Shown: positions 17,148 to 45,429 of the stretch, piece by piece
How the letters are laid out: each line of letters starts with the position of its first letter
Position numbering within the stretch: the first letter of the stretch is position 1
Source: Candidatus Fimivivens sp.
GTDB lineage: Bacteria > Patescibacteriota > Minisyncoccia > Moranbacterales > UBA1568
Direction of reading: 5' to 3'
Assembly (NCBI GenBank): GCA_035560715.1
Contig: DATMYW010000030.1
Coordinates: 1 to 52,901 of the forward strand
Length of the DNA stretch: 52,901 bases
Translations under genes and position numbers: made by a program
The notes under the pieces: generated by a model
Told to the model about the DNA's origin: nothing
What the model saw: only the letters and a program-made list of their open reading frames with translations
The model's database searches: none

Positions 17148-17212
17148 ACGGATTATCTCAACCGACCCGTTTCTTCGTTGTCAGTTGTCGGTTATAAGTC
17201 GTACGTTCTTCC

Positions 17213-18601: not shown

Positions 18602-18638
18602 GTGGCGACAGCATTTCGGTCATCCGAACCGCGTGACC

Positions 18639-21145: not shown

Positions 21146-22180
21146 TTAGGCCAAGAGGGCCGCGTCCTCCTTCGCCTTCTTCATGATCGCTTTGCCGATC
21201 GCTTCCGCGATTTTCGGATTTTCTTTGAGAAACGTCTTTGCCGTCTCGCGACCGACACCGAGTTTCGTCTCGCCGAAGAGGTATGAGTTGCCCGATTTCT
21301 TGACGGTCTCCAGACGGACTCCCGTATCCAACAGATCACCCGAAGCCGAGATGCCCTCGTTGTACATGATGTCGATTTCGGTCGTCCGGAACGGTGGAGC
21401 CACCTTGTTCTTCACGACCTTTATCTTCACGCGGTTGCCGACGACTTCCTCGCCCTTCTTGATCTGGGCGGCACGGCGCACCTCGATCCGGACCGATGAA
21501 TAGAACTTGAGTGCCTGACCGCCGGTCGTCGTCTCTGGATTGCCGAACATGACGCCGATCTTCATGCGCAGCTGGTTGATGAAGATGACCACTGTATTGG
21601 ACTTGGCCATGATCGGAGTAAGTTTGCGCAGGGCCTGCGACATGAGCCGAGCCTGTCGTCCGACATGCTGATCCCCCATCTCGCCTTCGATCTCCGCGCG
21701 CGGGACGAGTGCCGCCACCGAGTCGACCACGATCACGTCGAGCGCGTTCGAACGCACGAGTGTCTCGACGATGTCGAGCGCCTGTTCGCCCGCGTCCGGC
21801 TGTGAGATCAGAAGGTCGGCCGTCTTCACCCCGAGTTTCTTCGCATACTCCGGATCGAGCGCATGCTCCGCGTCGATGAAAGCCGCGGTCCCGCCCATCT
21901 TCTGCGCGTTCGCGATGATATGGAGCGCCAAGGTCGTCTTGCCCGACGACTCCGGCCCATACACCTCGATCACGCGGCCTCGCGGCACGCCGCCGATGCC
22001 GAGCGCCAGGTCGAGCGAGACCGATCCCGTCGGAATCGCCTCGATGTCCACCTTGCGGACTTCGCCGAGCTTCATGATCATCTCGTCCCCGAACTTCTCC
22101 TTGATGGATCCCATCACCGCGTCAAGACCGTCCTTTCCGCCACGCTTCTCCTGCTTCGCGTTCACGTCTTTCGCTGCCAT
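21146..22180 (-). CDS. recA: recombinase RecA
   Basis: Walker [22 protein letters not shown], whole-length RecA pattern. Confidence 0.98.
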
Positions 22181-33137: not shown

Positions 33138-34163
33138 TTACTTCCACCCCTGATTGACGATACGGAACGAGACCTGCTCCTGCTGGACGTTCACGATCCC
33201 CTGCGGGGTCTGCTGCGGGACGACCTGCTGGGTCTTCTTGAACTCCATACGGATCTCGAACCGGTTCGATTTTTCCGCGCTTTCAATTGCTGCGATCACA
33301 TAGTCTTTCTTGTTCTCAGCGCGGAACTCGCCACACTCGGCCTCGGGACTCCACTGCCCGTGGAGAACCATCTCGTCGCGATACGACTCGTAGAGCGAGG
33401 TGAGGAGCGTCGCGAGTTCTCCCTCGGCATACGAGACTGTCTTTATGCCAAGGTCTTCCTTGGCCTCGCGCCGACCGATGACATACTGGTGAGAGTAGAG
33501 TTTCTCGGTCAGGGTATCGATGATGCCGTCGATCGCCTTCTCGTCGAGCTTGGTCTGATGGCTGCCGAGGAGTCGCTTGGCGAGCAGTCGGATAAGCTTA
33601 TACGTGCGGTTCACATTGCCGAGTGCGAGTGGATGCACCGACGGCGTGCTATCGGCAAGCTTGTTGAAGATCTTGGTCAGTTCCTCGTCGCCCTTGATGC
33701 CGACACCTTCTTTCGCAAGGTCGAAGTACGCCATCACCTCCTCGACCGAAATCGGGATCCTGGCCTGCGGGTTCTGCGGATCGGCCGGATTGAAGACGTT
33801 CGCCGTCGAAGGGTCGATCGGGGTCAGCTCGCCCATGTCCGTCATCACGATCTCATCGGCGCCGAGCGCGATCATCGTCGCGGCGCTGTGCGCCTTGTAC
33901 GGCACGAGGACCGAAAAGGTATCGCAGTATTCGCGGATCATGGAGACGAGTCGCCATGGCACCATCGTGTCCCCACCCGCGCTGAACAGGACGAGATCGA
34001 TCTTCGGCACCTTGCCGATCGTGCGGAGCTGCTCACTCATCAGAGGAATCACGTCCATCGCGATCTTGGCACTCACCGGGCCCTGCCGGTCACTCGTCAC
34101 ATACGTAATCACCTTCGACCCTCGGGCCGATTCGATTTTTTTGAAAAGTTCGCTGCGTTCCAT
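33138..34163 (-). CDS. SDH-family Clp-fold serine protease
   Basis: VITYVTSDRQG, LVLFSAGGD, VPYKAHSAATMIALGADEIVM. Start moved to ATG 34163 because the ORF extension to 34319 runs through repeat A1. Confidence 0.75.
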   Translation of the reverse strand: MERSELFKKIESARGSKVITYVTSDRQGPVSAKIAMDVIPLMSEQLRTIGKVPKIDLVLFSAGGDTMVPWRLVSMIREYCDTFSVLVPYKAHSAATMIALGADEIVMTDMGELTPIDPSTANVFNPADPQNPQARIPISVEEVMAYFDLAKEGVGIKGDEELTKIFNKLADSTPSVHPLALGNVNRTYKLIRLLAKRLLGSHQTKLDEKAIDGIIDTLTEKLYSHQYVIGRREAKEDLGIKTVSYAEGELATLLTSLYESYRDEMVLHGQWSPEAECGEFRAENKKDYVIAAIESAEKSNRFEIRMEFKKTQQVVPQQTPQGIVNVQQEQVSFRIVNQGWK

Positions 34164-34194
34164 ATTTTTGGTTCGAATGTATTTCAACACCGTC

Positions 34195-34223
34195 ATCATA
34201 CACCCGAAAAACCCTTTTGTAAA
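34195..34223 (-). promoter_or_regulatory. promoter of the protease operon
   Basis: Minus strand TTTACA, 17 nt, TATGAT. Confidence 0.55.
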
Positions 34224-34268
34224 GCCTTCAAGCATCGCTACATGTCGATTACCTCCCCCACGAAACAC

Positions 34269-34431
34269 TTTGCAGGAGCAGGGTAGTCCCTGCTCCGAAA
34301 CGGTTTTCTCCCTTGCCAAGCCGCAGCCTTGGCGAAGGCTGGTTTGCCAAACCGGATATGTAACATCGATCGTAAACCATGTGGTTCAGGGTGCCCTCCA
34401 CGGGCGGGCAGGCAATCCTGAACCTGCGAGA
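34269..34431 (+). repeat. MITE-like hairpin element, copy A1 (163 nt)
   Basis: 5' hairpin GGAGCAGGG-TAGT-CCCTGCTCC, central GCCAAGCC...GGCTGG hairpin, 3' hairpin GGTTCAGG-N26-CCTGAACC, ends CTGCGAG. Confidence 0.85.
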
Positions 34432-34474
34432 AAACTACGAGAAGTATCCCTCATCCAAGCCTTTCCCCTGACGA

Positions 34475-34503
34475 TTGACTTATTTTCAAAAAAATGTTAT
34501 TTT
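34475..34503 (+). promoter_or_regulatory. cassette 1 promoter
   Basis: Box CTCATCCAAGCCTTTCC at 34450, then TTGACT, 17 nt, TATTTT. Confidence 0.5.
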
Positions 34504-34567
34504 TTCCAGTCGGTCAGCAGATCATTTCCAACAAACAAACGAGGCAAAACGCCGAAGGATCACCAAC

Positions 34568-35182
34568 ATGAACATCTATGAAATACTCGGATTAAAACTC
34601 CCTGTTCGGAATCGTTTCTCGTATATAAAGATGAGCGGGCCAATGAAGGTACTCGCCAGATACGAGACATCCAACGCATACGGCTTCGTAGTCCAAGAAG
34701 GCGTCCAAAGAAACATCATCGACATCCGGATTCCGAAAGATCTCGTGAAAGAACCAGTGGGAACGATCGACATGATCACGGTTACCTGGGAAAAGGATCA
34801 CGCCTTCATAGCGCCGCTTCAAAATTCCGACGCAAGGGAAGCTGATTATGGCAAACCGTTCTACCTTGATGGACCCCTTCAGGGTATGGCCGTACGATGC
34901 TTCACGATGCGAAACGATCACAGCGCCCCGCATGTGGCAGTTCCGATAGGCCAGCCACTTCCTCTCCTGTCCGCTTTCGAAGACGCCGGAGATCGACTCG
35001 TACTGATCAAAATGGATGACAACGGGCACGCGATCAAGAAAATGTCTCCGCTGACGGAATACAGCACAACCCCATGGGAAGAAATTCTCCTGAATCCATC
35101 GGGGTTTCGACTCCAGGTAGACGAAAGGTACGATACCGAAAACAAGGCCTTCCGTTTTTCCGAAAAACTTTCCAAAGAATGA
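34568..35182 (+). CDS. hypothetical protein (cassette 1)
   Basis: In-frame ATG 34568 (MNIYEILG...) with GAAGGA 9 nt upstream. The ORF-track start 34475 is the TTG of the -35 box. Confidence 0.65.
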   Translation: MNIYEILGLKLPVRNRFSYIKMSGPMKVLARYETSNAYGFVVQEGVQRNIIDIRIPKDLVKEPVGTIDMITVTWEKDHAFIAPLQNSDAREADYGKPFYLDGPLQGMAVRCFTMRNDHSAPHVAVPIGQPLPLLSAFEDAGDRLVLIKMDDNGHAIKKMSPLTEYSTTPWEEILLNPSGFRLQVDERYDTENKAFRFSEKLSKE

Positions 35183-35206
35183 ATCTTCCTCGGACACACG
35201 GTTCAG

Positions 35207-35252
35207 GGACGTTCTCTCGCATGTTAAGGCGAGGAACGTCCTTTATTATTTT
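35207..35252 (+). terminator. cassette 1 terminator
   Basis: GGACGTTCTCTCGC-N8-GCGAGGAACGTCC followed by TTTATTATTTT. Confidence 0.65.
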
Positions 35253-35444
35253 CAGCGAGCAAAAAACCACATGCGCGATATTTCATTGCATGAGATTTCT
35301 CGTGTAATGTGATCCATCCGTCATCGTCCGCATGAATATGCCGCGCACATAATCGTTTGTGCGATTCATTGCGTCATTTCCAAAGAGCGGATACTCGCGA
35401 CAAAACGCGCAAACTCTCACCTCATCCAAGCCCTTTCCGAACCG

Positions 35445-35473
35445 TTGACAGGAAATTAGTTCTTTGCTATAAT
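35445..35473 (+). promoter_or_regulatory. cassette 2 promoter
   Basis: Box CTCATCCAAGCCCTTTCCGA at 35421, then TTGACA, 17 nt (GGAAATTAGTTCTTTGC), TATAAT. Confidence 0.7.
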
Positions 35474-35506
35474 ATGTCGTTATCAGTGAGTTGTTTTACA
35501 ATGGTT

Positions 35507-35552
35507 GGTCATAGCCAAAAAAAGTTCATCCGGACTCTTTCTGGCTATGACC
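35507..35552 (+). promoter_or_regulatory. long perfect hairpin in the cassette 2 leader
   Basis: GGTCATAGCCA-N24-TGGCTATGACC, no following T-run, inside the 150-nt leader. Confidence 0.5.
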
Positions 35553-35623
35553 AAGAAAAAAGGTCTTAGTTCCGCCTCGGATGAGAGGAAACACAACCGC
35601 GCGACTGAGCGCAGGAGGCAATT

Positions 35624-36334
35624 ATGTCAGACAATATAAGAGATCCGTTCTATATCTCGAGAGTCTATCCAGGCGAATTAAACGCCCTGGTAAAGCACAT
35701 GATGCAACAGATGGGAACCAATGATCCGAATGAGGCGGTGAAGGGCATCAATAGCGGTGCGTATGCCGTTACAAAGGCACTCCCGTATTCCAAAGCCGAT
35801 GGTGTGCTCGCCATCGAACTCAGGTCGGATGGAACGACTGGGCCCGAGTGGATTCGTAAATGGAGAATGCGCGGCTACAAAGTCCCTGACAGGATACAAG
35901 AGCGTCTGTTGTCGCCTTCGTTCGAACCGACAAATGGCGTTACGTATCGCGTCGTGATTGTCTCCGAATCTGCGATTCTCATAAATCTGGGTACATGGAA
36001 CTCGACCTCGTCGGAGATCGGTTTCTCGGAAATTCTTGAGGAGGCCGGCAGGCGGAATCTCTCGATGATTGAGAACGAGGAAATCCCCTTCCTTCTCATG
36101 GAACGATTCACGAAAGGCCAGTACGAAAAAATGGGGTTTAAAGACATTGTCGTTCCTACACTGATCCCGGGTCCAATACCGACGATAAATGACCAGGAAG
36201 CTCAGTCATACGCGACATATCTGGAAACCTTCTACTACTTCGGTCGATTTTCACGGATCGAGGCGCTCGAATCAGCGATCTTCCAAAGAAATAGTGCTCG
36301 CGGCTATGCGCTCATCGAACGCAGCGAGTCATGA
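35624..36334 (+). CDS. hypothetical protein (cassette 2)
   Basis: 236-aa ORF. AGGAGG lies 6 nt before the ATG. Confidence 0.7.
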   Translation: MSDNIRDPFYISRVYPGELNALVKHMMQQMGTNDPNEAVKGINSGAYAVTKALPYSKADGVLAIELRSDGTTGPEWIRKWRMRGYKVPDRIQERLLSPSFEPTNGVTYRVVIVSESAILINLGTWNSTSSEIGFSEILEEAGRRNLSMIENEEIPFLLMERFTKGQYEKMGFKDIVVPTLIPGPIPTINDQEAQSYATYLETFYYFGRFSRIEALESAIFQRNSARGYALIERSES

Positions 36335-36355
36335 TCAGGATACGATGAGACACAG

Positions 36356-36383
36356 AAAAAGGGATCTCCAACGAGGTCCCTTT
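36356..36383 (+). terminator. cassette 2 terminator
   Basis: AAAAA-GGGATC-N8-GGTCCC-TTT, then stub CTCATTTCTCATCCAAC. Confidence 0.55.
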
Positions 36384-36400
36384 CTCATTTCTCATCCAAC

Positions 36401-36545
36401 TTTTGCAGGAGCAGGGTAGTCCCTGCTCCACACAGTTGTTCTCCCTTGCCAAGCCGTAGCCGTGGCGAAGGCTGGCGTGCCAAGCCGAATTCATAATATC
36501 GATCGTAAACCGCATGGTTCAGGGTGCAACCCTGAACCTGCGAGA
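36401..36545 (+). repeat. MITE-like hairpin element, copy A2 (145 nt)
   Basis: Same three-hairpin layout. 3' hairpin GGTTCAGGGT-GCA-ACCCTGAACC. Confidence 0.85.
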
Positions 36546-36560
36546 GGATACTCCCGCTCG

Positions 36561-36589
36561 TTGACACCCCCCTCCGGACCTGGTACGCT
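36561..36589 (+). promoter_or_regulatory. cassette 3 promoter (P2 type)
   Basis: TTGACA, 17 nt, TACGCT. A TACAAT at 36605 is an alternative -10. Confidence 0.45.
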
Positions 36590-36654
36590 GCCGAGAAGTG
36601 CTTTTTACAATCCGCATCAATCACCCGAAACCCTCTTAACGCGAAGGAGGCACC

Positions 36655-37095
36655 ATGCCACAAAACCTCATGAAAATTCAGATGTACGTTCCTGAAGGGT
36701 TCTCGACGATCAAGTCCGCACTCGATCGGTCGTTCGAGAAAGCCGGGTATCGGCTCGAAATGTGTACCGCCGAGGCGAAACCGCCATCGACCGATCCAAT
36801 AACGCTCGCGGTTCGGATGATCCCCGACGATTTCGGAGCGATTGCCGCCGGCCTCGCAATCATCGTTTCAGAAGAACCGGGCGGGCGGACGAAACTGGAC
36901 TGTGGGCTCGCGATACGAAAATACGACGATAATACGCATCGGGTGAATGCCCAGTTCGGTAATTTCTCTGTTGCCACCACATCGGACGAAATCGCTGGCC
37001 ATCGCATCTATGGCGGGGCATACGTCACGAAACTTGAGAAGGATCTGGACGCACTCATCCAGCAAATCCTGCCGCGGCGCCCCGTTCGCGCGTAA
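36655..37095 (+). CDS. hypothetical protein (cassette 3)
   Basis: 146-aa ORF. AAGGAGG lies 5 nt before the ATG. Confidence 0.7.
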   Translation: MPQNLMKIQMYVPEGFSTIKSALDRSFEKAGYRLEMCTAEAKPPSTDPITLAVRMIPDDFGAIAAGLAIIVSEEPGGRTKLDCGLAIRKYDDNTHRVNAQFGNFSVATTSDEIAGHRIYGGAYVTKLEKDLDALIQQILPRRPVRA

Positions 37096-37119
37096 CGACT
37101 GAAAAAAATACCCGATTAC

Positions 37120-37152
37120 CCGGCATGCGGCCCAACGCATGTCGGTTTTTTT
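37120..37152 (+). terminator. cassette 3 terminator
   Basis: CCGGCATGCG-N6-CGCATGTCGG followed by TTTTTTT. Confidence 0.8.
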
Positions 37153-37173
37153 GCCAAAAATCGATTCCCTTCG

Positions 37174-37202
37174 TTGACGCCCCCTTCCGGACCTGGTACG
37201 CT
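37174..37202 (+). promoter_or_regulatory. cassette 4 promoter (P2 type)
   Basis: TTGACG, 17 nt, TACGCT. Near-duplicate of 36561..36589 and its leader. Confidence 0.45.
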
Positions 37203-37268
37203 GCCAAGAAGTACTTTTTACAATCCGCATCAATCACCCGAAACCTTTTCAAAACAAAGGAGCGTAAC

Positions 37269-38156
37269 ATGACCACGACCAAACCGACACCGATCCTCAT
37301 TTCCGGCCTGCCGGGAAAAATGGCTACCCTGGTAGCGCAGGCGCTCATCCGCGACAACCGCTACCTGGTCGTTCCACACGCACTCGTCGGTCTGGAAACC
37401 ACCGACCCCGAAATCTTTCTCGAGCTCCACGACAAGCTGGGGCCGATGACGCGAATACCGTTCGAAACCGTGTATGCGCCTGGCAGACCAAATTACCTCC
37501 AGGAGCTGAAGTCGCGATACCCGGGACTCATCATCGTGGACTATTCCGTCCCGTCGGCCGTGAATACGAACGCCGAGCTGTTCTGTGACGCCGGTATCCC
37601 CTTCGTCATGGGCACGACCGGCGGCGACCGCAAGGCTCTCCAACGCACCGTCGAGCGATCGGGGGTTCCGGCCGTCATCTCCCCGAACATGTCGCCGGCG
37701 ATCGTCCTCTTGCTCTCGATGTTCGAGTATGCCGCCATGACCTTCCCCGATGCGCTCAAGGACTTCTCGCTCGAGATCATCGAGAGCCACCAGGCTGGAA
37801 AGAAGGACAAGAGCGGAACCGCAAAAAAGATTGGGGAACTCTTCGGACAGCTCGGAGTCGACTATCGCGGCGAGGATTCGATCAACGCGATCAGAAACCG
37901 CATGGCACAGCTCGCCATGTGCATCCCGCCCGAATATCTCGACGGCCACGGCTGGCACACCTACCGTCTGATATCGCCGGATGGCAGCGTTATGCTCGAA
38001 TTCAGGCACAACGTCAACGGACGGCAGACCTATGTCGACGGGACGGTCCTCGCCCTCGTATTTCTCATGGAAAAGGTCCGGGAAGCCTGCCTCGGAGTGT
38101 TCACGAACGAACCGACTGATACCTACTTCACGATGATCGACGTCCTGAAAGGATGA
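37269..38156 (+). CDS. dapB: 4-hydroxy-tetrahydrodipicolinate reductase homologue (plant/long type), cassette 4
   Basis: In-frame ATG 37269 with AAGGAG upstream. N-terminal Rossmann ILISGLPGKMA, MGTTGG, catalytic-loop-like ESHQAGKKDKSGTA. Confidence 0.7.
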   Translation: MTTTKPTPILISGLPGKMATLVAQALIRDNRYLVVPHALVGLETTDPEIFLELHDKLGPMTRIPFETVYAPGRPNYLQELKSRYPGLIIVDYSVPSAVNTNAELFCDAGIPFVMGTTGGDRKALQRTVERSGVPAVISPNMSPAIVLLLSMFEYAAMTFPDALKDFSLEIIESHQAGKKDKSGTAKKIGELFGQLGVDYRGEDSINAIRNRMAQLAMCIPPEYLDGHGWHTYRLISPDGSVMLEFRHNVNGRQTYVDGTVLALVFLMEKVREACLGVFTNEPTDTYFTMIDVLKG

Positions 38157-38183
38157 CAACGCGAACCGAAACGACAACGAACG

Positions 38184-38214
38184 AAAGGGATTCCACCGAA
38201 ACGGAATCCCTTTT
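38184..38214 (+). terminator. cassette 4 terminator
   Basis: AAAGGGATTCC-N8-GGAATCCCTTTT. Confidence 0.8.
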
Positions 38215-38230
38215 CTATTTTTCCTCCAAC

Positions 38231-38419
38231 TTTTGCAGGAGCAGGGTTGTACCCTGCTCCGAAACGGTCGGTCTCCCTTGCCAAGCCGGAGCCTCGGCGA
38301 AGGCTGGCTTGCCAAGCCGCAGTCATGGCAAAGGCTGGCTTGCCAAGCCGAATATATGAAGTCGCTCGTAAACCGCGTGGTTCAGGGTGTAACCCTGAAC
38401 CTGCGAGAAACCTGCGAGA
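38231..38419 (+). repeat. MITE-like hairpin element, copy A3 (189 nt)
   Basis: Same layout. Internal 31-nt unit CTTGCCAAGCC..GGCTGG duplicated in tandem (38277..38307, 38308..38338). 11-nt AACCTGCGAGA duplicated at the 3' end. Confidence 0.85.
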
Positions 38420-38450
38420 ATTATCCCAAATCCAAGCCATTTCCGGACAG

Positions 38451-38479
38451 TTGACTGGAAAGCGATTCTTTGCTATAAT
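38451..38479 (+). promoter_or_regulatory. cassette 5 promoter (P1 type)
   Basis: TTGACT, 17 nt (GGAAAGCGATTCTTTGC), TATAAT. Confidence 0.75.
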
Positions 38480-38542
38480 ACACCGTTATAGTAGTCTTTA
38501 CACCACAAACCACCAACCAGGGCCCGGAAAACGGGGAAATCG

Positions 38543-38878
38543 ATGAAACAGATTGAAAGCCTCAAGGAATTCAAAGGGGGGAATTATTATTGTGTCATTA
38601 CTTTCGGTTGGACAGGCAGCGCCGAAGATCAGCAAACTTTCTTCGTCAGAACGGTAAAACAAACAGGGGGTCTCAGCATAACATACGATTCCGGAAAGAA
38701 GGCGGAACTTTCCCCGACGAACCTGAAAGAAGGTCTCGAATCCGGCGCCTATTACTCCTCCAGCAAGAGCGCCTTTCTTAAAGAGGTGAGATCCTTCCTC
38801 TCCAACATGAAAAGGACTCGAAAAAAGCGATCTCGAACAATACATGACTTCGAACAGTTTATTGCGACTCTTCCGTAA
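38543..38878 (+). CDS. hypothetical protein (cassette 5)
   Basis: 111-aa ORF behind the conserved leader. No signal peptide. Confidence 0.6.
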   Translation: MKQIESLKEFKGGNYYCVITFGWTGSAEDQQTFFVRTVKQTGGLSITYDSGKKAELSPTNLKEGLESGAYYSSSKSAFLKEVRSFLSNMKRTRKKRSRTIHDFEQFIATLP

Positions 38879-38916
38879 CAAGAGGAGGCTTAAAAAAGAC
38901 GGCCTTGATCGTATGC

Positions 38917-38946
38917 AAAGGAGCTCCATCCAACCGGAGCTCCTTT
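38917..38946. terminator. cassette 5 terminator
   Basis: AAAGGAGCTCC-N8-GGAGCTCCTTT. Confidence 0.8.
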
Positions 38947-38947
38947 C

Positions 38948-39007
38948 TCATTTCTCCTTCAACCCGAGCTTGTCGATTCTCGATCGGATACTGCCCGGCT
39001 GGCGCCC
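38948..39007 (-). pseudogene. fossil copy H3 of the helicase 3' end
   Basis: Minus-strand read GRQPGSIRSRIDKLGLKEK-stop versus helicase GRQPGSIRSRIEKLGLGEK-stop. Six synonymous and two non-synonymous codon differences. Confidence 0.8.
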
Positions 39008-39039
39008 GATCATCCCTCATCCAAGCCCTTTCCGGACGG

Positions 39040-39068
39040 TTGACTGGAAAGCGATTCTTTGCTATAAT
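39040..39068 (+). promoter_or_regulatory. cassette 6 promoter (P1 type)
   Basis: Box CTCATCCAAGCCCTTTCCGGA at 39016, then TTGACT, 17 nt (GGAAAGCGATTCTTTGC), TATAAT. Confidence 0.75.
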
Positions 39069-39130
39069 GCACCGTTATAGTAGTTTTTACACCACAAACC
39101 ACCAACCAGGGCCCGGCAACGGGTTTACTC

Positions 39131-39724
39131 ATGAATACACGATCCACGTTTCGCGGTTTTCTTATCGGATTCTTTCTTGTTTTTTTGGCCGCGTGCAGCC
39201 AGAAATCAAGCGAAAATCCAAGGGACATCGAGGAGCGGCTTAGGCAGGCTCCGCCGAAAACCTTCCTGATCGACGAAAAAGGGAATGTGACCAAAGTCGG
39301 CCACGTTGCCGCAGAAACGGACGAAATCACGTCCGTTAACACCGATGGGGCATTCGGCACTATGCCAATCCGGACGGCTACGGGAAGGATCGTCGAGATC
39401 GTCGTGCCCGATCACCAGAACTACGCCGCCTACGAGCGCATGTTCCCTGGCTTGCAATCACAGGACATCCTGAGAAAGGCAGGGCAAGGGGCGATCGCTC
39501 TCATGGCTGACGGTTCCGTCATGGTCATCGTCAATCCGACGTATGAGTATGGCATCGCGATGGTCTCGAAATCAATCGGAACGAGACAGACGCTCTCAAC
39601 CGATGACATCGTAGCTAAAGCGGTCAACATCGTCTCTCCGAAAACTCCAGGAAAGGCGCTCAACGGCTATGATGAGCTGTGTGCGACCTACGTCAGCGGT
39701 ACAAGATTGCGACCTCAGAAGTAA
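39131..39724 (+). CDS. lipoprotein L1 (cassette 6)
   Basis: Signal peptide MNTRSTFRGFLIGFFLVFLAAC with lipobox L-A-A-C (Cys22). Confidence 0.8.
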   Translation: MNTRSTFRGFLIGFFLVFLAACSQKSSENPRDIEERLRQAPPKTFLIDEKGNVTKVGHVAAETDEITSVNTDGAFGTMPIRTATGRIVEIVVPDHQNYAAYERMFPGLQSQDILRKAGQGAIALMADGSVMVIVNPTYEYGIAMVSKSIGTRQTLSTDDIVAKAVNIVSPKTPGKALNGYDELCATYVSGTRLRPQK

Positions 39725-39743
39725 CGAGGCCTCAACCAAAGAA

Positions 39744-39769
39744 AAAGGAGCTTCCAACGGAGCTCCTTT
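39744..39769. terminator. cassette 6 terminator
   Basis: AAAGGAGCT-N8-AGCTCCTTT. Confidence 0.75.
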
Positions 39770-39770
39770 C

Positions 39771-39827
39771 TCATTTCTCCCCCAACCCGAGCTTTTCAAT
39801 TCTCGAACGGATACTGCCCGGTTGGCG
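39771..39827 (-). pseudogene. fossil copy H2 of the helicase 3' end
   Basis: Minus-strand read RQPGSIRSRIEKLGLGEK-stop is identical to the helicase C-terminus, although 8 nucleotides differ. All eight changes are synonymous. Confidence 0.85.
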
Positions 39828-39874
39828 GACGAAAGACGGACGGACCTGATCCGACTGAACCCTTTCCGAAAGTC

Positions 39875-39903
39875 TTGACATACGGCACGAAATATACTAT
39901 CGT
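39875..39903 (+). promoter_or_regulatory. cassette 7 promoter
   Basis: TTGACA, 17 nt, TATCGT, preceded by the partial box CCCTTTCCGAA. Confidence 0.5.
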
Positions 39904-39961
39904 ATCGTGAAGCATCTTACCATCATTTTTCCCTAACCTCTGACCGAAACCGGAGACTCTC

Positions 39962-41056
39962 ATGAAACAAGCGGGACCAACCCAACCAGAAAGCGCCATC
40001 ACCGAACTCCAAAAACTGTTTGACGAAGCGTTTATCGCGTTTGAGAACCAGCCCATTACACCGGGAATAGCCAACCTCGGAGGTGCGGAAATCCCGACAC
40101 ATGTCGGAGGTATCGAAATACGGACGATTCAGCCGGGTGAAGACGGATACACGCTGGGAAATACGTATCTGACCCAGATCTGTAACCAGTTCCGGGAATG
40201 GAGTGCTGACGTACGTGAGGAATACCGGAGGCGGGGCGTGGCGCACGTCGCGATACTCCCGCTCTATATCATGCACGAATTCTTCCGGGCCACCGGAAAG
40301 ATCTCCCTACGTCCGACTGAGCGCGATATGATCATGCTCTCGAGACACTGGAAAAAACCGCTTCAGGAATCAGTGTATGATGCCATTGACACGACAGCGC
40401 ATATCATGGGCCTGGCATGTTCCATCGGATTGGCAGCGGGAGCCGGTTACTTGCTGTTCTGGCCCGGAGGACTGAAGGGAAACGTCGACTATTTCAACGC
40501 CCTTTTCCTGAACACGACCAAGGTGATCCTGACGATTGCCGTTGCCATCGGAATGATGTGGGCAACGAATCTGTTCCTCGGTTACATCGGAAAGAAGGCC
40601 GCGGTCAAACGATTCGTAGAACGGGTTTTCCGCTGGAGATTGGGACGTTTCATCCGAACGGAAAGTCGCTACGAAGTGTTTCGCACCGTTCTGGACAACA
40701 GTCGCTACTGCGACGAATCGGACGCCTATTACGAAACCATCGCGTTTCGTGATTATCCGGACGGATTGGAACGGACCCTGTTCGCCGCCGGACGGTCATA
40801 TGTCGCCGCGCATCCGGATGCCATCGGTATCGCAGGGACGTCATATGAACTGTCCATGATTGGATGGAAACAGCGTCGGCCGGAATTCGCGGAACCGACG
40901 GTATCGGGTCCATGCGTTCTCTTCTACCACGAGCGGGAACACGCGACTGACAAACGGCATTGCCCATATGGAATCGTACTCGGCACGATCGGTGAACTCT
41001 CAAAAGAAGATGCCGATATCTTCCGCGGGCTCTTGAACAATGAGCGTCTTGTCTGA
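39962..41056 (+). CDS. hypothetical two-TM membrane protein (cassette 7)
   Basis: 364-aa ORF. GGAG lies 6 nt before the ATG. Central hydrophobic helices IMGLACSIGLAAGAGYLLFW and VILTIAVAIGMMWATNLFLGYI. Confidence 0.7.
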   Translation: MKQAGPTQPESAITELQKLFDEAFIAFENQPITPGIANLGGAEIPTHVGGIEIRTIQPGEDGYTLGNTYLTQICNQFREWSADVREEYRRRGVAHVAILPLYIMHEFFRATGKISLRPTERDMIMLSRHWKKPLQESVYDAIDTTAHIMGLACSIGLAAGAGYLLFWPGGLKGNVDYFNALFLNTTKVILTIAVAIGMMWATNLFLGYIGKKAAVKRFVERVFRWRLGRFIRTESRYEVFRTVLDNSRYCDESDAYYETIAFRDYPDGLERTLFAAGRSYVAAHPDAIGIAGTSYELSMIGWKQRRPEFAEPTVSGPCVLFYHEREHATDKRHCPYGIVLGTIGELSKEDADIFRGLLNNERLV

Positions 41057-41069
41057 ACGAGACCGAACA

Positions 41070-41105
41070 AAAACCCGACGCGTGCAGCCGCGCCCGTCGG
41101 GTTTT
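41070..41105 (+). terminator. cassette 7 terminator
   Basis: AAAACCCGACG-N14-CGTCGGGTTTT. Confidence 0.85.
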
Positions 41106-41135
41106 ATTCTCCTCATCCAAGCCATTTCCGGACGG

Positions 41136-41164
41136 TTGACTGGAAAGCGTTTCTTTGCTATAAG
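41136..41164 (+). promoter_or_regulatory. cassette 8 promoter (P1 type)
   Basis: Box CTCATCCAAGCCATTTCCGGA at 41112, then TTGACT, 17 nt (GGAAAGCGTTTCTTTGC), TATAAG. Confidence 0.7.
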
Positions 41165-41224
41165 ACATCTTTATCAGTGCCTTACCATTTCAACTCAAAC
41201 AAGGTCCCGGCAACGGGTTTACTC

Positions 41225-41806
41225 ATGAATACACGATCCACGTTTCGCGGTTTTCTTATCGGCATCGCGCTCATTTTCCTCGCCGCATGCGGCCAGAAAA
41301 CCGAAACGAATCCGCCGGAGGTCGCGAGGCAAAAGGCCGAGGAGATCCGAAGCGCGACTCCGACGACCTTCGTAAGAAGTTTCGCGGATCACATCGTAAG
41401 GATCACGAACATCGACAAGGACACGTTCACCGCGATCGAGCCCGACGGCACGTTCCGAACTTACGCGATTTCGGCGGCAGCAAAAACGGTCGACGAGATC
41501 ATAAAGCCGGACGACCCGAACTACGCCGACTACGTGCATATGTTCCAAAACGAATCCGTCATCGCGGCGATACACAACGCGGGTCAGTACGCCTTCATCG
41601 TTGCCAAGGATGGGACGATCGGTCAAATAGTCAATAACCCCGCCCCCGCCGCACTCACCGCCAACGTCCGCTGGCATCAGGGAGCAATGATTGTAAAAAT
41701 GGAGATTTCCTCGATCGCCACACGACTTATCGACGTCGTTCCGACAAGTGACATTAGGTACAACACCTTTGCCGGAAAGTACTGCCGCGAAGAAAAGGCG
41801 AAGTGA
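41225..41806 (+). CDS. lipoprotein L2 (cassette 8)
   Basis: In-frame ATG 41225. MNTRSTFRGFLIGIALIFLAAC lipobox (Cys22). The first 38 nt of the CDS are identical to L1. Confidence 0.8.
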   Translation: MNTRSTFRGFLIGIALIFLAACGQKTETNPPEVARQKAEEIRSATPTTFVRSFADHIVRITNIDKDTFTAIEPDGTFRTYAISAAAKTVDEIIKPDDPNYADYVHMFQNESVIAAIHNAGQYAFIVAKDGTIGQIVNNPAPAALTANVRWHQGAMIVKMEISSIATRLIDVVPTSDIRYNTFAGKYCREEKAK

Positions 41807-41824
41807 TTGTCGGCGCGCAACAAA

Positions 41825-41850
41825 AAAGGAGCTTCCAACGGAGCTCCTTT
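41825..41850. terminator. cassette 8 terminator
   Basis: AAAGGAGCT-N8-AGCTCCTTT. Confidence 0.75.
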
Positions 41851-41911
41851 CTCATTTCTCCCCCAACCCGAGCTTCTCGATCCGCGAACGGATGCTGCCA
41901 GGCTGACGGCC
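41839..41911. repeat. 73-bp perfect direct repeat, left copy (contains pseudo 3' end H1, 41852..41911)
   Basis: Identical base for base to 42730..42802 (offset 891). Covers half the terminator plus the stop and last 19 codons of the helicase. Confidence 0.9.
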
Positions 41912-41990
41912 AAAGGGAAATATCGTCCCTCCTCCAAGCCATTTTCAAACCATTTCACAAGGAAATGATAATGTCCCCATTTTCGAACCA

Positions 41991-42019
41991 TTGACGAGGT
42001 AGCTATTTCCTGCTATAAT
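41991..42019 (+). promoter_or_regulatory. cassette 9 promoter
   Basis: TTGACG, 17 nt, TATAAT. Confidence 0.7.
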
Positions 42020-42078
42020 AGACCGTCGCAGTAGTCTTACCAATAACTCTCAACCAGGGCCTGGAAACGGGTTTTATC

Positions 42079-42693
42079 ATGCACACATATTCCACGCTTC
42101 GCCACATCCTCGTCGGATTCTTTCTCGTTTTCCTCGCCGCATGCACGGAGATGACCAATCCGCAGGATGTCGCAACGGAATTCCAGAATAAACTAAAGGA
42201 GGCCCCGATCGGATCCTATGTGATCACCAATTACGGAACATGCCTAAGAATAGAGTCGCGATCTTCCGACCGTGATAGCCTGTATGTCTTTACCGGACGC
42301 GGCTCGATGAGTAAACTCGGGATCACTGCTCTTTCCTACGAGTCCAAAAAACTACTCCTCCCAGGGGAAGAAGGGTATGCGGCTCAGGACAGGAGTTTCC
42401 GCGATATTACTCAAGAATCCCGGATATTAAATGCGCCAAAAGGCACCCTCCTTCTCCGGAAGAATATCTCCAACGGAAGAACGGAAGTCGGTATGATAAT
42501 GGCATCCACCGGCTGCCCCGGTGTCGTGAATGTCTGTTGGAAAAATGGCTCGCAGGCAGAATCTGAACAAGTATTCACGCTTACCAAAACGATCACCTCT
42601 ATCATCACTCCCTCCGAACAGGACTATAAAACGTACATGCTCTTGTTCAATAATGGGAAAGTCTTCCATCCGGAAGGATTCAGAAAAGGCTGA
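42079..42693 (+). CDS. lipoprotein L3 (cassette 9)
   Basis: MHTYSTLRHILVGFFLVFLAAC lipobox (Cys22), behind the conserved leader. Confidence 0.8.
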   Translation: MHTYSTLRHILVGFFLVFLAACTEMTNPQDVATEFQNKLKEAPIGSYVITNYGTCLRIESRSSDRDSLYVFTGRGSMSKLGITALSYESKKLLLPGEEGYAAQDRSFRDITQESRILNAPKGTLLLRKNISNGRTEVGMIMASTGCPGVVNVCWKNGSQAESEQVFTLTKTITSIITPSEQDYKTYMLLFNNGKVFHPEGFRKG

Positions 42694-42713
42694 AATCGAC
42701 GAGGTATGAAAAT

Positions 42714-42741
42714 AGGAGCTCCATCCAATCGGAGCTCCTTT
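42714..42741. terminator. bidirectional terminator shared by L3 and the helicase
   Basis: AGGAGCTCC-N8-GGAGCTCCT followed by TT. Confidence 0.75.
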
Positions 42742-42802
42742 CTCATTTCTCCCCCAACCCGAGCTTCTCGATCCGCGAACGGATGCTGCCAGGCTGACGG
42801 CC
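42730..42802. repeat. 73-bp perfect direct repeat, right copy (functional helicase 3' end)
   Basis: See 41839..41911. Confidence 0.9.
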
Positions 42803-44383
42803 GAGGGTGTGCGAGATCGATTTGATATCGGCCCCTCCCTGGACAAGCCTTCGGAGCCACTTGTCCTCGTCTTCCTTCCACGGCGTATACGCCTTCGGGA
42901 ATGTCTTCCGTATCTCGTCATAATGACCGGGGCCGGCGGTTTTGGGAGTCGGACTCCCGCTTGGGAGTCGGACTCCCTTTTTCACTTCTTTTCTCCCCTT
43001 CGTCTTCTGCTTACCCATTTTTCCCTTTCCCCCTTGCCACGTAGGAGCCTTGGCGGAGGAGGGCTGCACCCCGCAGATGATCAAAAACCCTTCCTCATCT
43101 TTCCGGATCTCGTCTTCGCTCCGTGAGCCGTACGATGTCGCGGCCGACTCGCTCGCCTCGCGAAAGAGGAGGTCGCGCTCGCGCACCGCCGGGTGCGTGA
43201 GGAACGCGCGGTCGGAGAGTCCGACGAGCGAAAGCCCCGCGAGGGTGCGCACGCGGGAGAGCGCCACATATCCCTGCCCGTATTCGAACACGCGAGACAG
43301 GTCCATGACCGCCGCATCGAGCGAGGTTCCCTGACTCTTGTGGATCGTCATCGCCCACGCGAGCCGCAACGGGATCTGCCGGATCCGCGCCACGATCTCC
43401 TCCCCTTCCTCGACCGCCCATTCGGCAGGAGCGACCGTCACCGTGTCACCGTCGCGGGTGCGGACAATCGGGAATTTCTTGGTCGCATCGAACCCGATGA
43501 CCGTGCCGAGCGTCCCGTTCACGTATCCTTCCTCGGCATTGTTCTTGGTGAACATGACCGAGGCGCCCTCCTTGAGTTCGAGCTTCTCGGGCGAAAGGCA
43601 CCCGCGGATGAGCGAGGCGAGCGGTCCCTCGGGTCCCCGCGTCGCCATACGGAAGACGACTGCCTTCCCGGGAAGCCGGTCGAGCGCGGCCGCATTGATC
43701 CCGTCCACGTCGGTATTGTGCGAGAAAAGCACCGGCAGGTCCTCGTCCGGCACATCATCGGGTCCCAGGAGGCACTTGCGAACGAGTTCGAGGTGCGTCT
43801 CGCCGAATTCGTCACGGCGGATCGCGGAGAGTATCTCGAGGAATGCCGGGTCTTCCTGACGGTGCTGCTCATGCAGATAGCAGACGACCGGATCGAGCGC
43901 GGCCCACGCGGACGACTCGAACGCGAACTGGGCCGCCCCATCGCGCGACACCGGCGGCAGCTGGAAGAAGTCGCCGACGAGCACGACCTGGATCCCGCCA
44001 AAGGGAAGCGTCGTTCCCTTGGCGTGCCGGCACACCCGCTCCACAAGCGAAAGTGTCCGCGCATCGAGCATCGAGATCTCGTCGATTACGAGGACGTTCG
44101 TCTCGCGAATCCGACGCAGGGCCGCACGGTTCTTCACGAGACGGCGGAATCCCTCGTCGTCGAGCTCGCGGTTCGCACCGATCCCGCTCCACGAGTGGAT
44201 GGTCATCCCGTGGATATGCGTGGCCGCGATTCCGGTCGAGGCCGTCACCGCGTACGCGATACCCCGGGAACGAAGGTATTCCGCATATCGGTTCACGACA
44301 TGCGTCTTGCCGGCACCCGCCTCCCCCGTGAGGAAAACGTTCGCGCCGGTCTTGAGTATGGATAGCGCCTGGTCCTGGGTCAT
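42743..44383 (-). CDS. PIF1/RecD-like ATP-dependent DNA helicase with a C-terminal Myb/HTH-like tail
   Basis: Walker A GEAGAGKTH, VLVIDEISM, VLVGDFFQLPPV, TIHKSQG. Tail YTPWKEDEDKWL...LGRQPGSIRSRIEKLGL. Confidence 0.88.
   Translation of the reverse strand: MTQDQALSILKTGANVFLTGEAGAGKTHVVNRYAEYLRSRGIAYAVTASTGIAATHIHGMTIHSWSGIGANRELDDEGFRRLVKNRAALRRIRETNVLVIDEISMLDARTLSLVERVCRHAKGTTLPFGGIQVVLVGDFFQLPPVSRDGAAQFAFESSAWAALDPVVCYLHEQHRQEDPAFLEILSAIRRDEFGETHLELVRKCLLGPDDVPDEDLPVLFSHNTDVDGINAAALDRLPGKAVVFRMATRGPEGPLASLIRGCLSPEKLELKEGASVMFTKNNAEEGYVNGTLGTVIGFDATKKFPIVRTRDGDTVTVAPAEWAVEEGEEIVARIRQIPLRLAWAMTIHKSQGTSLDAAVMDLSRVFEYGQGYVALSRVRTLAGLSLVGLSDRAFLTHPAVRERDLLFREASESAATSYGSRSEDEIRKDEEGFLIICGVQPSSAKAPTWQGGKGKMGKQKTKGRKEVKKGVRLPSGSPTPKTAGPGHYDEIRKTFPKAYTPWKEDEDKWLRRLVQGGADIKSISHTLGRQPGSIRSRIEKLGLGEK
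42942..42977. repeat. tandem 17-mers, each holding a 15-nt palindrome, inside the helicase CDS
   Basis: TTGGGAGTCGGACTCCC at 42942..42958 and 42961..42977. Core GGGAGTCGGACT also forms the half-site of the 32-nt intergenic palindromes. Confidence 0.85.
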
Positions 44384-44424
44384 ATTCGTTTCCTTATCCT
44401 ATCATCCGACAGACAAAACTGAAA

Positions 44425-44461
44425 CAAAAAAAGACTTGGGAACGGTTATCCCCAGGTCTTT
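44425..44461 (-). terminator. terminator after 44472..45053
   Basis: Minus strand AAAGACCTGGG-N10-CCCAAGTCTTT followed by TTTTT. Confidence 0.7.
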
Positions 44462-44471
44462 GGCGAAAAGC

Positions 44472-45053
44472 TCACATCCGCCTAAGCACATCGCGCACGC
44501 GATAGGCGGCATACCGCTCAGAAACGAGGTACGCTCCGATCGTGCACGCCAACACGATCAACGTGATAACATGCCCGCCGGGAATCAGCGCAAGAAAAAG
44601 CACGACAAACCCGACCGATACCGACGTCCATTCCGCCCATGAACACTCGAAGTACCCGAAGGCGGACGTGATGGCCGCCCAGGACGGTTTGTCTCGTCTC
44701 GCCCGTGTCACCGACTGCACGGACAGGACCGACAGGACGGCGATAAAGAATACCCAGACCAAAAGCACCGCGCCTTCCTCCAGCCGGCCGACGGACTTGG
44801 CAATAAACCCTATATGTGCCAGGAGCCGATACCCGACGTCCGGCTTCGAAACGAGCGCCGAGAGACCAAATGAGACGGCGAGAAAAAGACCGTACGACAG
44901 CATCTTTTCAGTTCCCGTCTCCCTCTCATATGGGTCCTCTTCCGACCCGAGTCGTCCTTCCACGAATCGTTCCGCGCTATCGGACAGACCGAATCTGATT
45001 TTTATATCGGAAATCAGATCCCGTTCATATCGCATAAGATGCCGTATCATCAT
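44472..45053 (-). CDS. hypothetical multi-TM membrane protein
   Basis: 193-aa ORF. AAGGAGGG lies 1-2 nt (unusually close) before the ATG. Confidence 0.65.
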   Translation of the reverse strand: MMIRHLMRYERDLISDIKIRFGLSDSAERFVEGRLGSEEDPYERETGTEKMLSYGLFLAVSFGLSALVSKPDVGYRLLAHIGFIAKSVGRLEEGAVLLVWVFFIAVLSVLSVQSVTRARRDKPSWAAITSAFGYFECSWAEWTSVSVGFVVLFLALIPGGHVITLIVLACTIGAYLVSERYAAYRVRDVLRRM

Positions 45054-45429
45054 ACCCTCCTTGTTTTCCGTTGTAAAAAAGCAATCGCCTCACGATGGTA
45101 CAGTCAACGGTTCATGGCGTCAACTTCGTTCGGAAAAAATGACCGCTCCGTCCCGTTTTCCGATTTCAGCGAAAAATCGAGGCCTGAATAAGCCTCATTT
45201 CCGGTCGGTTTCAAAGTTCGGGACAGGACCGAATTTCAGGAACGGATGCATGAGACGCTTCCGGAAGCCTCCGCCCCGTACTACCAGAGTACGAAATATG
45301 GTCGTACTCCGATACCGGTTGTCATATCCCCATATCAAACGGTACACCAACTGACGACCGCATTATTATGTTACATTATTCTTTCAGGATTTCAGCAGAG
45401 CAGTAAGGACGGTCTCGCTCCCGTAATAC

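Follow-up and report, generated by a model that had tools for sequence, protein, structure and literature searches.

Introduction

Tandem accretion of foreign DNA at the 3′ end of a housekeeping gene is well known from the staphylococcal cassette chromosome (SCC) elements at rlmH/orfX and from the islands at transfer RNA (tRNA) and transfer-messenger RNA (tmRNA) genes, while concerted evolution and gene conversion are known from surface-protein loci such as vsp/vlp of Mycoplasma, pilE/pilS of Neisseria and vls of Borrelia. In the candidate phyla radiation (CPR, Patescibacteria), the genomes are tiny and the variation of surface and accessory genes is little understood. Here, we analyzed a metagenome-assembled contig of 52,901 nucleotides (nt; 52.9 kb; hereafter the window) from an NCBI metagenome-assembled genome (MAG), which is a chromosomal segment of a Candidatus Moranbacteria (CPR/Patescibacteria) genome. 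Between a PIF1-family helicase gene and the gene of a ClpP-like SDH-type serine protease, the window carries an array of nine genes (cassettes), and the last of them, encoding the predicted lipoprotein L3, is flanked by a perfect 73-nt direct repeat that copies the end of the helicase gene. We found that the two copies of this repeat belong to a larger family of helicase-derived linkers, and that the pair is probably the latest footprint of RecA-type homologous recombination among these linkers.

The locus resembles several of the systems named above, each in part. As in SCC and tRNA-gene islands, cargo is stacked beside an intact core gene, the direct repeats copy the last codons or bases of that gene, and empty sites occur in relatives. 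Those islands, however, rely on a dedicated Ccr or Int recombinase, short core repeats and a fixed crossover point, whereas in the present array no recombinase was found, the repeats are 50-100 nt long, mosaic and with variable breakpoints, and each unit is one gene (~0.6-1.2 kb) that carries a promoter. One-directional single-gene cassettes, hairpin-forming separators and a content that differs between close relatives are shared with integron arrays, but intI, attI and Pc are missing from the array, the cassettes carry sigma-70-like promoters of their own, and the separators consist of a terminator hairpin plus a fragment of helicase pseudogene instead of attC. The near-identical 5′ regions, divergent mature parts, perfect patches and mosaics recall vsp/vlp, pilE/pilS and vls and would fit a RecA-type process; unlike in those loci, the flank here holds a fragment of an unrelated core gene and the genes involved are in part non-paralogous (dapB-like, p364, p111 and others), and the likeness is one of sequence. 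Loop-out, amplification and deletion between direct repeats is a generic mechanism and not a named system; it compares with the present case in that a 73-nt repeat flanks 818 nt, and the L3-less chromosome and the circle that it predicts fit a contig from the Logan assemblies, the action of the mechanism here being deduced from contigs. The unusual twist of the locus is that the 3′ flank is a recycled fragment of the neighbouring core gene, which feeds changes back into that gene.

Results

A perfect repeat of the helicase gene end flanks the L3 gene

An earlier reading of the window, made from its letters only (the sequence-only reading), had drawn attention to a 73-nt repeat around the last cassette. 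Exact comparison confirmed that 41839-41911 and 42730-42802 are identical at 73 of 73 positions, at an offset of 891 nt, with the exact match extending 0 nt on either side. The pair is the longest exact direct repeat in the window, followed by repeats of 57, 53 and 37 nt, and the chance expectation for an exact pair of 73 nt is ~1.6e-35 pairs. The right copy (copy B, 42730-42802, minus strand) is the genuine 3′ end of the PIF1 helicase gene and is contiguous with its open reading frame (ORF) at 42743-44383 (minus strand), which encodes 546 amino acids (aa; PF05970, E 4.9e-33) with a helix-turn-helix (HTH)-like tail at the C-terminus. The ORF coordinates bore out the stated content of the repeat, namely the 3′ hairpin arm, the TGA stop and 19 helicase codons: 42730-42742 are 13 nt past the stop and include the 3′ arm of the hairpin, 42743-42745 are the TGA (minus strand), and 42746-42802 are the final 19 codons (GRQPGSIRSRIEKLGLGEK). 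The left copy (copy A, 41839-41911, minus strand) lies between the terminator of the neighbouring lipoprotein gene L2 and the L3 promoter; it is a remnant of the helicase tail, which reads ...FPFGRQPGSIRSRIEKLGLGEK by tblastn without the helicase body.

The interval between the copies (41912-42729, 818 nt) contains one strong promoter-like site, a leader of ~60 nt and the L3 ORF (42079-42693, plus strand; 204 aa, predicted lipoprotein with a signal peptide ending in ...FLAAC), in agreement with the sequence-only reading. The promoter-like site (41991-42019, plus strand; TTGACG-17-TATAAT with extended TG, 11 of 12 consensus positions) belongs to a family of modules with copies at 35417, 38423, 39012, 41108 and 41977, and L3 is followed by a bidirectional hairpin terminator at 42714-42739 (-24.7 kcal/mol, z -5.1). 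Sharp breaks had been claimed at both ends of the repeat. This holds for the right boundary; on the left, the exact match is interrupted by a 4-nt indel and a few mismatches in the hairpin loop and left arm, and the similarity of the pair continues as far as 41822/42709 (41822-41911 against 42709-42802, 94.7% over 94 aligned columns).

Upstream of L3 (41933-41996), the -35 region is directly duplicated (CCATTTTCAAACCATT / CCATTTTCGAACCATT, ~44 nt apart), and the duplication leaves a second, weaker promoter-like site at 41944-41972.

The repeat is part of a family of helicase-derived linkers

A repeat search found four copies of a ~97-nt module, starting at 38914, 39737, 41818 and 42709, in each of which helicase-tail codons come after a terminator hairpin when read on the minus strand. 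The last 300 nt plus 45 nt of 11 helicase genes of the clade, defined by a helicase identity of 72% or above, served to build a nucleotide profile (nhmmer). This profile recovered the long copies at E-values of 1e-23 to 1e-25 as well as two short copies, c0a and c0b, which retain solely the hairpin and ~17 nt of the tail. Six of the nine cassettes (p235, p236, p146, dapB-like, p111, L1, p364, L2 and L3, in this order on the plus strand of 34320-42742) end in a copy of the helicase terminator and tail. The pair had been taken for a unique attL/attR-like signature, and this did not survive: its two halves are members of a six-copy family.

The copy at the helicase itself (c4, 42709-42805, containing copy B) joins the real tail to a bidirectional hairpin, type A (AGGAGCTCC-ATCCAATC-GGAGCTCCT), which is also the native helicase terminator in the related loci L004-L007, L082, L083 and L166 (loci and contigs from other sources carry three-digit numbers). 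Copy c3 (41818-41914, containing copy A; profile positions 243-340, E 7.9e-24) has a type-B hairpin, distinguished by a 4-nt loop deletion, and a tail remnant. Older tail remnants follow L1, again with a type-B hairpin (c2, 39737-39833, E 1.6e-23), and p111, with a type-A hairpin (c1, 38913-39013, E 9.8e-26). The short copies lie after the dapB-like gene (c0b, 38180-38230; profile 289-339, E 9.5e-4) and after p236 (c0a, 36352-36400; tail CTCATTTCTCATCCAAC, nhmmer E 0.1), the latter being 78% identical to 39737-39786. Each short copy is joined to a copy of a repeat element, module C, directly so in c0b, and the long linkers are joined to promoter modules.

In the register of the 73-mer, the real tail is matched at 63 of 73 positions by c1, at 64 of 73 by c2 and at 73 of 73 by c3. 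Compared with helicase tails of relatives, c1 is 91.8% (L004) and 89.7% (L007) and c2 91.5% (L004) identical, against ~86% to the window's own tail. The proximal ~25 nt of every copy comprise the hairpin arm and TTTCTCATTTCTC, whose opposite strand encodes GEK-stop. This part is kept in all copies because it forms the U-tract of the plus-strand terminator, which is TTTCTCATTTCTC itself.

In c1 (38950-39015, minus strand), the helicase frame starts with an ATG just past a stop codon, giving a potential 21-aa ORF (MIGRQPGSIRSRIDKLGLKEK) that is probably fortuitous.

The left copy is a recombinant of two linkers

Copy c3 equals c2 exactly over 53 nt (41823-41875 = 39742-39794) and c4 exactly over 73 nt, and the two blocks overlap in a 37-nt core common to c2, c3 and c4. 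Within the aligned region, c3 agrees with c2 and not with c4 at 11 columns, all on the left, and with c4 and not with c2 at 9 columns, all on the right. The probability of such a perfect left/right segregation of 20 informative sites is <1e-4, and therefore c3 is a recombinant of c2 (left) and c4 (right).

Perfect patches are present outside the helicase tail as well. A 57-nt exact block shared by L1 and L2 (39112-39168 = 41206-41262) covers the leader, the start codon and the signal peptide, which indicates that block-wise homogenisation is general in the inter-cassette modules. The L1 and L2 proteins are 41% identical despite their identical leader, signal-peptide and terminator blocks. Their flanks look homogenised around a mature core that has diverged fast or been replaced.

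Several marks of gene conversion were thus found at the locus. There are more than two paralogous copies with block-wise identity (the c3 mosaic and the 57- and 53-nt blocks), and copies sharing lineage-specific substitutions exist in locus L002, where the true helicase tail and two remnants, r1 and r2, share GCGCGGATGAGGAAGCTCGGGCTGG, which is absent from the true helicase tails of other species. This second pattern is mixed, as c1 and c2 of the window are nearer to the L004 tail than to their own. Homologous-recombination machinery is represented in the window by RecA (21146-22180; PF00154, E 2.9e-137); ComEC (3037-4515) and FtsK are encoded there as well. The fallback offered by the sequence-only reading, a very recent duplication or recombination through this segment, is supported by the mosaic of c3 and by its full identity to c4, set against 63-64 of 73 in the older copies.

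The array varies among related genomes and its remnants exchange sequence with the helicase gene

Helicase loci were drawn from 185,579 species-representative genomes, JGI metagenomes and exact-protein look-ups, and the interval from the helicase to the SDH protease was compared. The closest helicase homologues are all annotated as Moranbacteria/Moraniibacteriota and are 72-79% identical, the best non-self match being 79%. At L006 and L083, there are 0 cassettes and the protease match starts within ~55 nt of the helicase stop. One p111-like cassette is present in L005 and the same one in L082, whose contig ends before any protease; two are found in L166 (an L-family lipoprotein gene and dapB) and three in L002/L164 (a Bro-N gene, dapB and an L3 orthologue of 54% identity), compared with nine in the window. 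In L167, two cassettes are followed by RadC, a type I restriction-modification system (HsdS/HsdM), Bro-N and ThsB-TIR genes (13416-19221), and the site therefore also hosts a defence island. The helicase-to-protease interval is hypervariable within the clade, a hot spot of recombination.

Helicase-tail remnants were found in three other species, two in L002/L164, one in L166 and one in L167. Those of L002/L164 recur in a pair of independent MAGs with 99.87% identity along 15.6 kb, and the remnants are therefore a biological phenomenon and not the accident of one assembly. When the tails were compared with their own loci by BLAST, the 80 fetched loci with a near-full-length helicase showed no such repeats outside the clade. 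In L002 as in L166, dapB is followed on its 3′ side by the same type of remnant plus hairpin (...GCGCGG(AT)GAGGAAGCTCGGGCTGGCATGA, hairpin GAGGCTCTCGCGAGAAGAGCCTC). On its far side, this remnant adjoins either a Bro-N gene or a lipoprotein promoter, depending on the locus. A remnant thus travels with the gene whose terminator it forms.

The true helicase tail of L002 carries remnant-type substitutions (RARMRKLGL...), as in the dapB-linked remnants of L002 and L166, and the protein ends in RARMRKLGLEGD rather than RSRIEKLGLGEK. Since this C-terminus differs from those of the relatives, insertion at the site is taken to have rewritten the end of the protein. Remnant r1 of L002 is itself a mosaic, its 5′ end resembling the window and its 3′ end L002. 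Remnants and the real helicase gene exchange sequence in both directions.

The Bro-N gene of L002/L164/L165 (11679-12527, plus strand; 282 aa, PF02498, E 1.6e-5) lies between the true tail and r1 and is oriented as the helicase. In L167, a truncated second PIF1 fragment (8298-9068; 256 aa, N-terminal part) lies upstream of the intact helicase.

Cassette 9 had been proposed as the youngest layer of the array. We could not establish this, as the L3 orthologue of L002 is the cassette farthest from the helicase. The age of cassette 9 is not decided by the repeat, because gene conversion would yield an identical 73-mer while leaving age and order as they were.

The remnants share an outer boundary

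On the profile, the starts of the seven long remnants all fall at positions 229-244, a span of ~15 nt, while their outer ends abut four unrelated partners: an L-type promoter, the dapB promoter, the upstream region of p364 and the 3′ end of Bro-N. The distant but intact helicase genes of L085 and L145 also align to the profile from position 230 only, and the boundary is therefore also the start of a block conserved at the nucleotide level. This conserved block is the only part of an old remnant that stays recognisable and convertible. A common boundary as proof of an attachment (att) site was accordingly weakened by the L085 and L145 alignments.

At the joints of the linkers, the tail is followed by an upstream module. 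This circular-permutation order is the one that either a tandem segmental duplication or the re-integration of a looped-out circle would produce if one end lay within the 3′ end of the helicase gene. Next to the tail remnant of c3, the flank resembles helicase codons ~30 further upstream (CTTGGAGGAG-GGACG versus CTTGGAGGCGCGGACG; p ~0.01 with four relatives, 0.09 with the window). This residual match is a weak hint of an older, longer and decayed remnant and is not significant alone. A motif upstream of the promoters, TCCCTCATCCAAGCC, was also tried as decayed helicase coding sequence and set aside as a weak hint, its local alignments giving p ~0.01-0.1 and nhmmer no extension.

Searches for recombinases and mobile elements

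Domain scans with Pfam, NCBIfam and PADLOC covered nearly all ORFs of at least 130 aa and every non-overlapping ORF of at least 250 aa, and detected no integrase, resolvase, invertase, recombinase or transposase domain in the 52.9-kb window. An exact search for the shared 21-nt core GGAGCTCCTTTCTCATTTCTC gave 0 matches in JGI metagenome contigs and IMG/VR, hence no strain variants or viral carriers there, and no entry of the phage and plasmid collections matched 41800-42810 by blastn. Rfam and ARAGORN searches of the array also gave no match.

Of the features of att-type integration, flanking direct repeats that duplicate the target are present (73 of 73), and there is neither a recombinase in or near the element within the 52.9 kb nor a single fixed crossover in a short core: the exact blocks overlap by 37 nt and end differently, and r1 of L002 is mosaic. 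The locus is bordered by the PIF1 helicase and the SDH protease genes instead of intI, attI and Pc, and its cassettes are not promoterless units with attC, since a recognisable TTGAC-type -35/-10 promoter module (L-type or dapB-type) lies upstream of seven of the nine and the separators are terminator hairpins with helicase fragments. Transposition would leave duplications of 2-15 bp, terminal inverted repeats and a transposase; the repeat here is at least 73 nt, and the window showed no terminal inverted repeats at cassette ends.

Logan contigs hint at an L3-less haplotype

Among Logan contigs (k=31), L001 and L162 from SRR7629281 match 42737-45372 and 39765-41235 of the window with 0 mismatches; L163, from SRR7629282, also matches with 0 mismatches and is too short to reach the repeat. 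A k-mer map showed that the 31-mers starting at 42737-42772 occur twice in the window (c3 and c4), and the assembly graph of the window haplotype must therefore fork after 42772, one continuation leading into the helicase (42773) and one towards the L3 promoter (41882). This fork point (42802/42803) is crossed by L001 without a break. The end of L001 falls precisely on 42737, the first position of the three-copy core, at which the c2 branch, represented by the beginning of L162, comes in. The ends of this one contig hint that the dominant haplotype of SRR7629281 is without the junction of tail and L3 promoter. On the simplest reading, either L2 abuts the helicase there with a single 73-mer or c3 is not yet identical to c4, and under both alternatives the event would be recent and still segregating. 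The empty site anticipated by the sequence-only reading is thus supported in part: L006 and L083 are empty of the whole array, while an L3-specific empty site is hinted at indirectly by the Logan contig, the closest genome being of another species (79% best match).

When the exact products of L3, p111 and L2 (the last with three alternative starts) were looked up in Logan and in further assemblies, none was on record. The absence of L3 from the Logan protein index was considered as a sign of an L3-less sample and dropped, as L2 and p111 are missing too. The k=31 contigs predicted for L3, L2 and p111 are below 1 kb (879, 620 and 619 nt) and the recovered contigs measure 1091-2636 nt; the Logan index probably has a length floor.

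At 45372, in the gap between rpoC and the membrane-protein gene, Logan contigs of two runs (SRR7629281 and SRR7629282) stop at the same nucleotide. The window has no repeat that would account for this. The shared end suggests that the graph branches there, towards a strain variant or a repeat in another part of the genome.

Discussion

We consider it probable that the 73-mer pair is the latest footprint of RecA-type homologous recombination among paralogous helicase-tail linkers. In this model, a linker consists of the bidirectional terminator shared by the helicase gene and its convergent neighbour, plus the last 5 to ~22 helicase codons. The linkers would have been born of old segmental duplications, or of the re-integration of looped-out circles, with the right end inside the helicase 3′ end, and the hairpin and U-tract would have been retained since they terminate the transcript of each cassette. 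As the copies are 85-90% alike, they are expected to keep recombining. Recently, c3 would have exchanged with c4, either through a conversion tract from c4 or as a crossover product, over a stretch that begins inside the 37-nt core in common with c2 and reaches as far as the homology goes, which would have left 73 identical bases. Such a direct repeat could let the L3 cassette loop out and in, and L3-plus and L3-minus genomes may coexist. Several points weigh against this model. A stretch of 73 nt is a short substrate for RecA; the shared remnant boundary would not be expected from repeated illegitimate events, and a defined, att-like boundary is possible; and the Bro-N gene in L002 and the defence island in L167 show that mobile DNA targets the site. 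In addition, the recombinase search covered 52.9 kb in which several ORFs have no detectable family, so that a recombinase acting in trans is possible, conversion is not separable from crossover, and the argument from Logan comes from the ends of a single contig.

Site-specific integration, as proposed by the sequence-only reading, would explain the cassettes as small circles whose attP copies the helicase 3′ end, with a recombinase supplied in trans and the 73-mers as attL and attR of L3. Much of the architecture is compatible with it: direct repeats bracket a single unit of promoter, gene and terminator; accretion is in tandem beside an intact gene end, as in islands at tRNA genes or rlmH; the seven long remnants begin within 15 nt despite their different partners; the type-A hairpin is an 11-8-11 inverted repeat with the geometry of a tyrosine-recombinase core site (lox-like); relatives have empty sites and an L3-less haplotype is hinted at; and the Bro-N gene of L002 occupies the same place in the other orientation. 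We nevertheless consider it unlikely. No recombinase domain was found in the window, the 73-mer core was not found on IMG/VR or JGI metagenome contigs, and the cassette DNA has no phage or plasmid match. The breakpoints differ between copies, the c2/c3 block ending at 41875 and the c3/c4 block starting at 41839, and therefore there is no single crossover point. Identical patches have also been homogenised in promoter and leader modules that are not att-like, and the 57- and 53-nt blocks lie between internal cassettes, with no insertion at the helicase involved; the common boundary is where distant full-length helicases start aligning as well; and the remnants are inherited with the terminator of the upstream gene, not with the downstream promoter. 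A bolder form of the idea, a shade less likely still, is that the PIF1 helicase 3′ end and terminator would be a dedicated cassette-capture site in one Moranbacteria lineage, integron-like without a linked integrase, with L3 segregating as present or absent. A trans recombinase, or a mechanism using the C-terminal HTH of the helicase, would shuffle the cassettes, and each event would rewrite the last ~20 helicase codons; the cargo would comprise lineage-specific lipoproteins, the dapB-like gene, the Bro-N gene and the defence genes of L167.

An assembly artefact, in which the MAG threads two strain variants through the shared repeat and the order or the identity of the left copy exists in no single genome, is another candidate, the window being a metagenome contig with exact repeats of 73, 57 and 53 nt within 3.7 kb (39112-42802). 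An 'L2-R-helicase' sequence (R, the repeat) together with an 'R-L3' that is circular or foreign gives the same de Bruijn graph as the integrated form, and the Logan contig of SRR7629281 lacks the fork required by the window haplotype. However, both unique junctions, from the tail to the L3 promoter and from L3 through the type-A hairpin to the tail, must exist in reads for the assembly to be made, and therefore the tail remnant upstream of L3 is real; a misassembly could at most have mis-linked L2 to the left copy. As the same architecture occurs in four species, in L002/L164 in two independent assemblies, and as L001, L162 and L163 match with 0 mismatches and break exactly where the repeats of the window predict, we regard an artefact as improbable. 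Even less probable is a fresh illegitimate event, in which a tandem duplication of recent date, or an insertion that duplicated a long target, made a new 73-nt (~95-nt) copy together with L3. It would account for the perfect identity and for the sharp right boundary against the window's own helicase, but the left part of c3 is not copied from c4, being the type-B hairpin of L1 and L2. Since a fresh tandem duplication would have left L2 and L3 near-identical, their identity of 23% leads us to reject it. The linker of c3 (tail, short spacer, GGCTTGGAGGAGGG, promoter, in helicase-strand orientation) is homologous to those of L166 and L167 and is therefore old, and the weak residual helicase similarity past the 73-mer (p ~0.01-0.1) points the same way. 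Selection in place of recency, with the 73 nt kept identical by a sequence-specific function such as a terminator combined with a binding site or an antisense target, seems to us the least probable of all. The first ~25 nt, hairpin arm and U-tract TTTCTCATTTCTC, are indeed needed for plus-strand termination and are the sole part kept in c0a and c0b; the distal ~50 nt, however, vary freely in c1 and c2 (63-64 of 73) and in the remnants of other species, and hence no constraint on the exact sequence is evident.

The repeat is most likely an ordinary footprint of recombination, and a perfect repeat around one gene does not by itself evidence integrase-type insertion. The locus is a case of cassette turnover in a CPR genome that can be tested in reads. 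It shifts from 0 to 9 self-promoted cassettes among close relatives, including those of a near-private lipoprotein family, and its separators are recycled core-gene fragments that still recombine with the gene and are able to alter the end of its protein. If L3 is present in some cells only, the locus would offer a tractable natural case of ongoing gene gain and loss in an uncultivated symbiont.

Cargo, repeat modules and surroundings of the array

L3 has two paralogues in the array, L1 (39131-39724, plus strand, 197 aa) and L2 (41225-41806, plus strand, 193 aa, terminator at 41825-41850), with L2 being 41% identical to L1 and 23% to L3. A profile of the L1/L2/L3 family retrieved 8 proteins among 1.84 billion representatives, three of them from the window, and the family thus appears nearly unique to the clade. 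L3 gave no Pfam, NCBIfam or PADLOC match, and a word-indexed homologue search returned L3 alone. Its AlphaFold2 model is of moderate quality (predicted local distance difference test score, pLDDT, 73) and gave no fold match in the PDB at E <= 1e-3, with template modelling (TM) scores of at most 0.33. A literature search for hypervariable lipoprotein loci in CPR gave nothing relevant, and one for the run SRR7629281 gave no match.

The window is rich in housekeeping genes (ndk, comEC, ftsZ, hisS, lepB, efp, rpsF, recA, ftsK, rpoC and rpoB). On the minus strand, the order is rpoB, rpoC, a gene for a 192-aa membrane protein, the PIF1 helicase gene and, 8.4 kb on, the gene of the ClpP-like SDH-type protease (ORF 33138-34319, minus strand; PF01972, E 3.8e-15), whose true start is probably the ATG at 34235. 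The helicase and protease genes are the two fixed borders of the array.

The interval between rpoC and the helicase gene holds only the unrelated 192-aa membrane protein in the window, and is filled in relatives by a family of ~200-aa proteins without signal peptides, with four genes in L164 (6896-9862, minus strand) and two in L166 (3934-5120, minus strand). As the content differs among relatives, the upstream side of the helicase is variable too. One copy of the same family is a cassette downstream of the helicase in L167 (12582-13127, minus strand).

Module C, the element joined to the short linkers, is a conserved ~170-nt sequence with three hairpins, composed of GGAGCAGGG-TAGT-CCCTGCTCC, a variable number of 31-nt sub-repeats (TTGCCAAGCC...GGCGAAGGCTGG) and GGTTCAGGGT-GCA-ACCCTGAACC. 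It occurs at 34255-34475, 36388-36560 and 38218-38425 in the window, at 9585-10070 in L083 (3-4 tandem copies), at 13430-13561 in L006, at 13000-13165 in L005 and at 8660-8860 in L166. It stands upstream of the SDH protease gene in the window and in L166, and is multi-copy and located elsewhere in other relatives. Module C had no match in Rfam; from its structure, it could be a small RNA gene or a repeat resembling miniature inverted-repeat transposable elements (MITE) or repetitive extragenic palindromic (REP) sequences.

The gene for a DapB-like protein (dihydrodipicolinate reductase fold) is an odd cargo for a CPR genome. It is found at 37269-38156 (plus strand) in the window, 12664-13533 in L002, 7694-8569 in L166 and 11690-12040 in L084. 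It has a promoter and a helicase-tail linker to itself and takes different array positions in the four species, behaving like a mobile cassette. A second promoter module (TCGTTGACACCCCC...TACGCT...) flanks p146 on both sides in the window (36558-36649 and 37171-37262, 89% identical), and in L166 a single copy of this module drives dapB directly. It looks as if p146 had been inserted between the promoter and dapB with duplication of the promoter.

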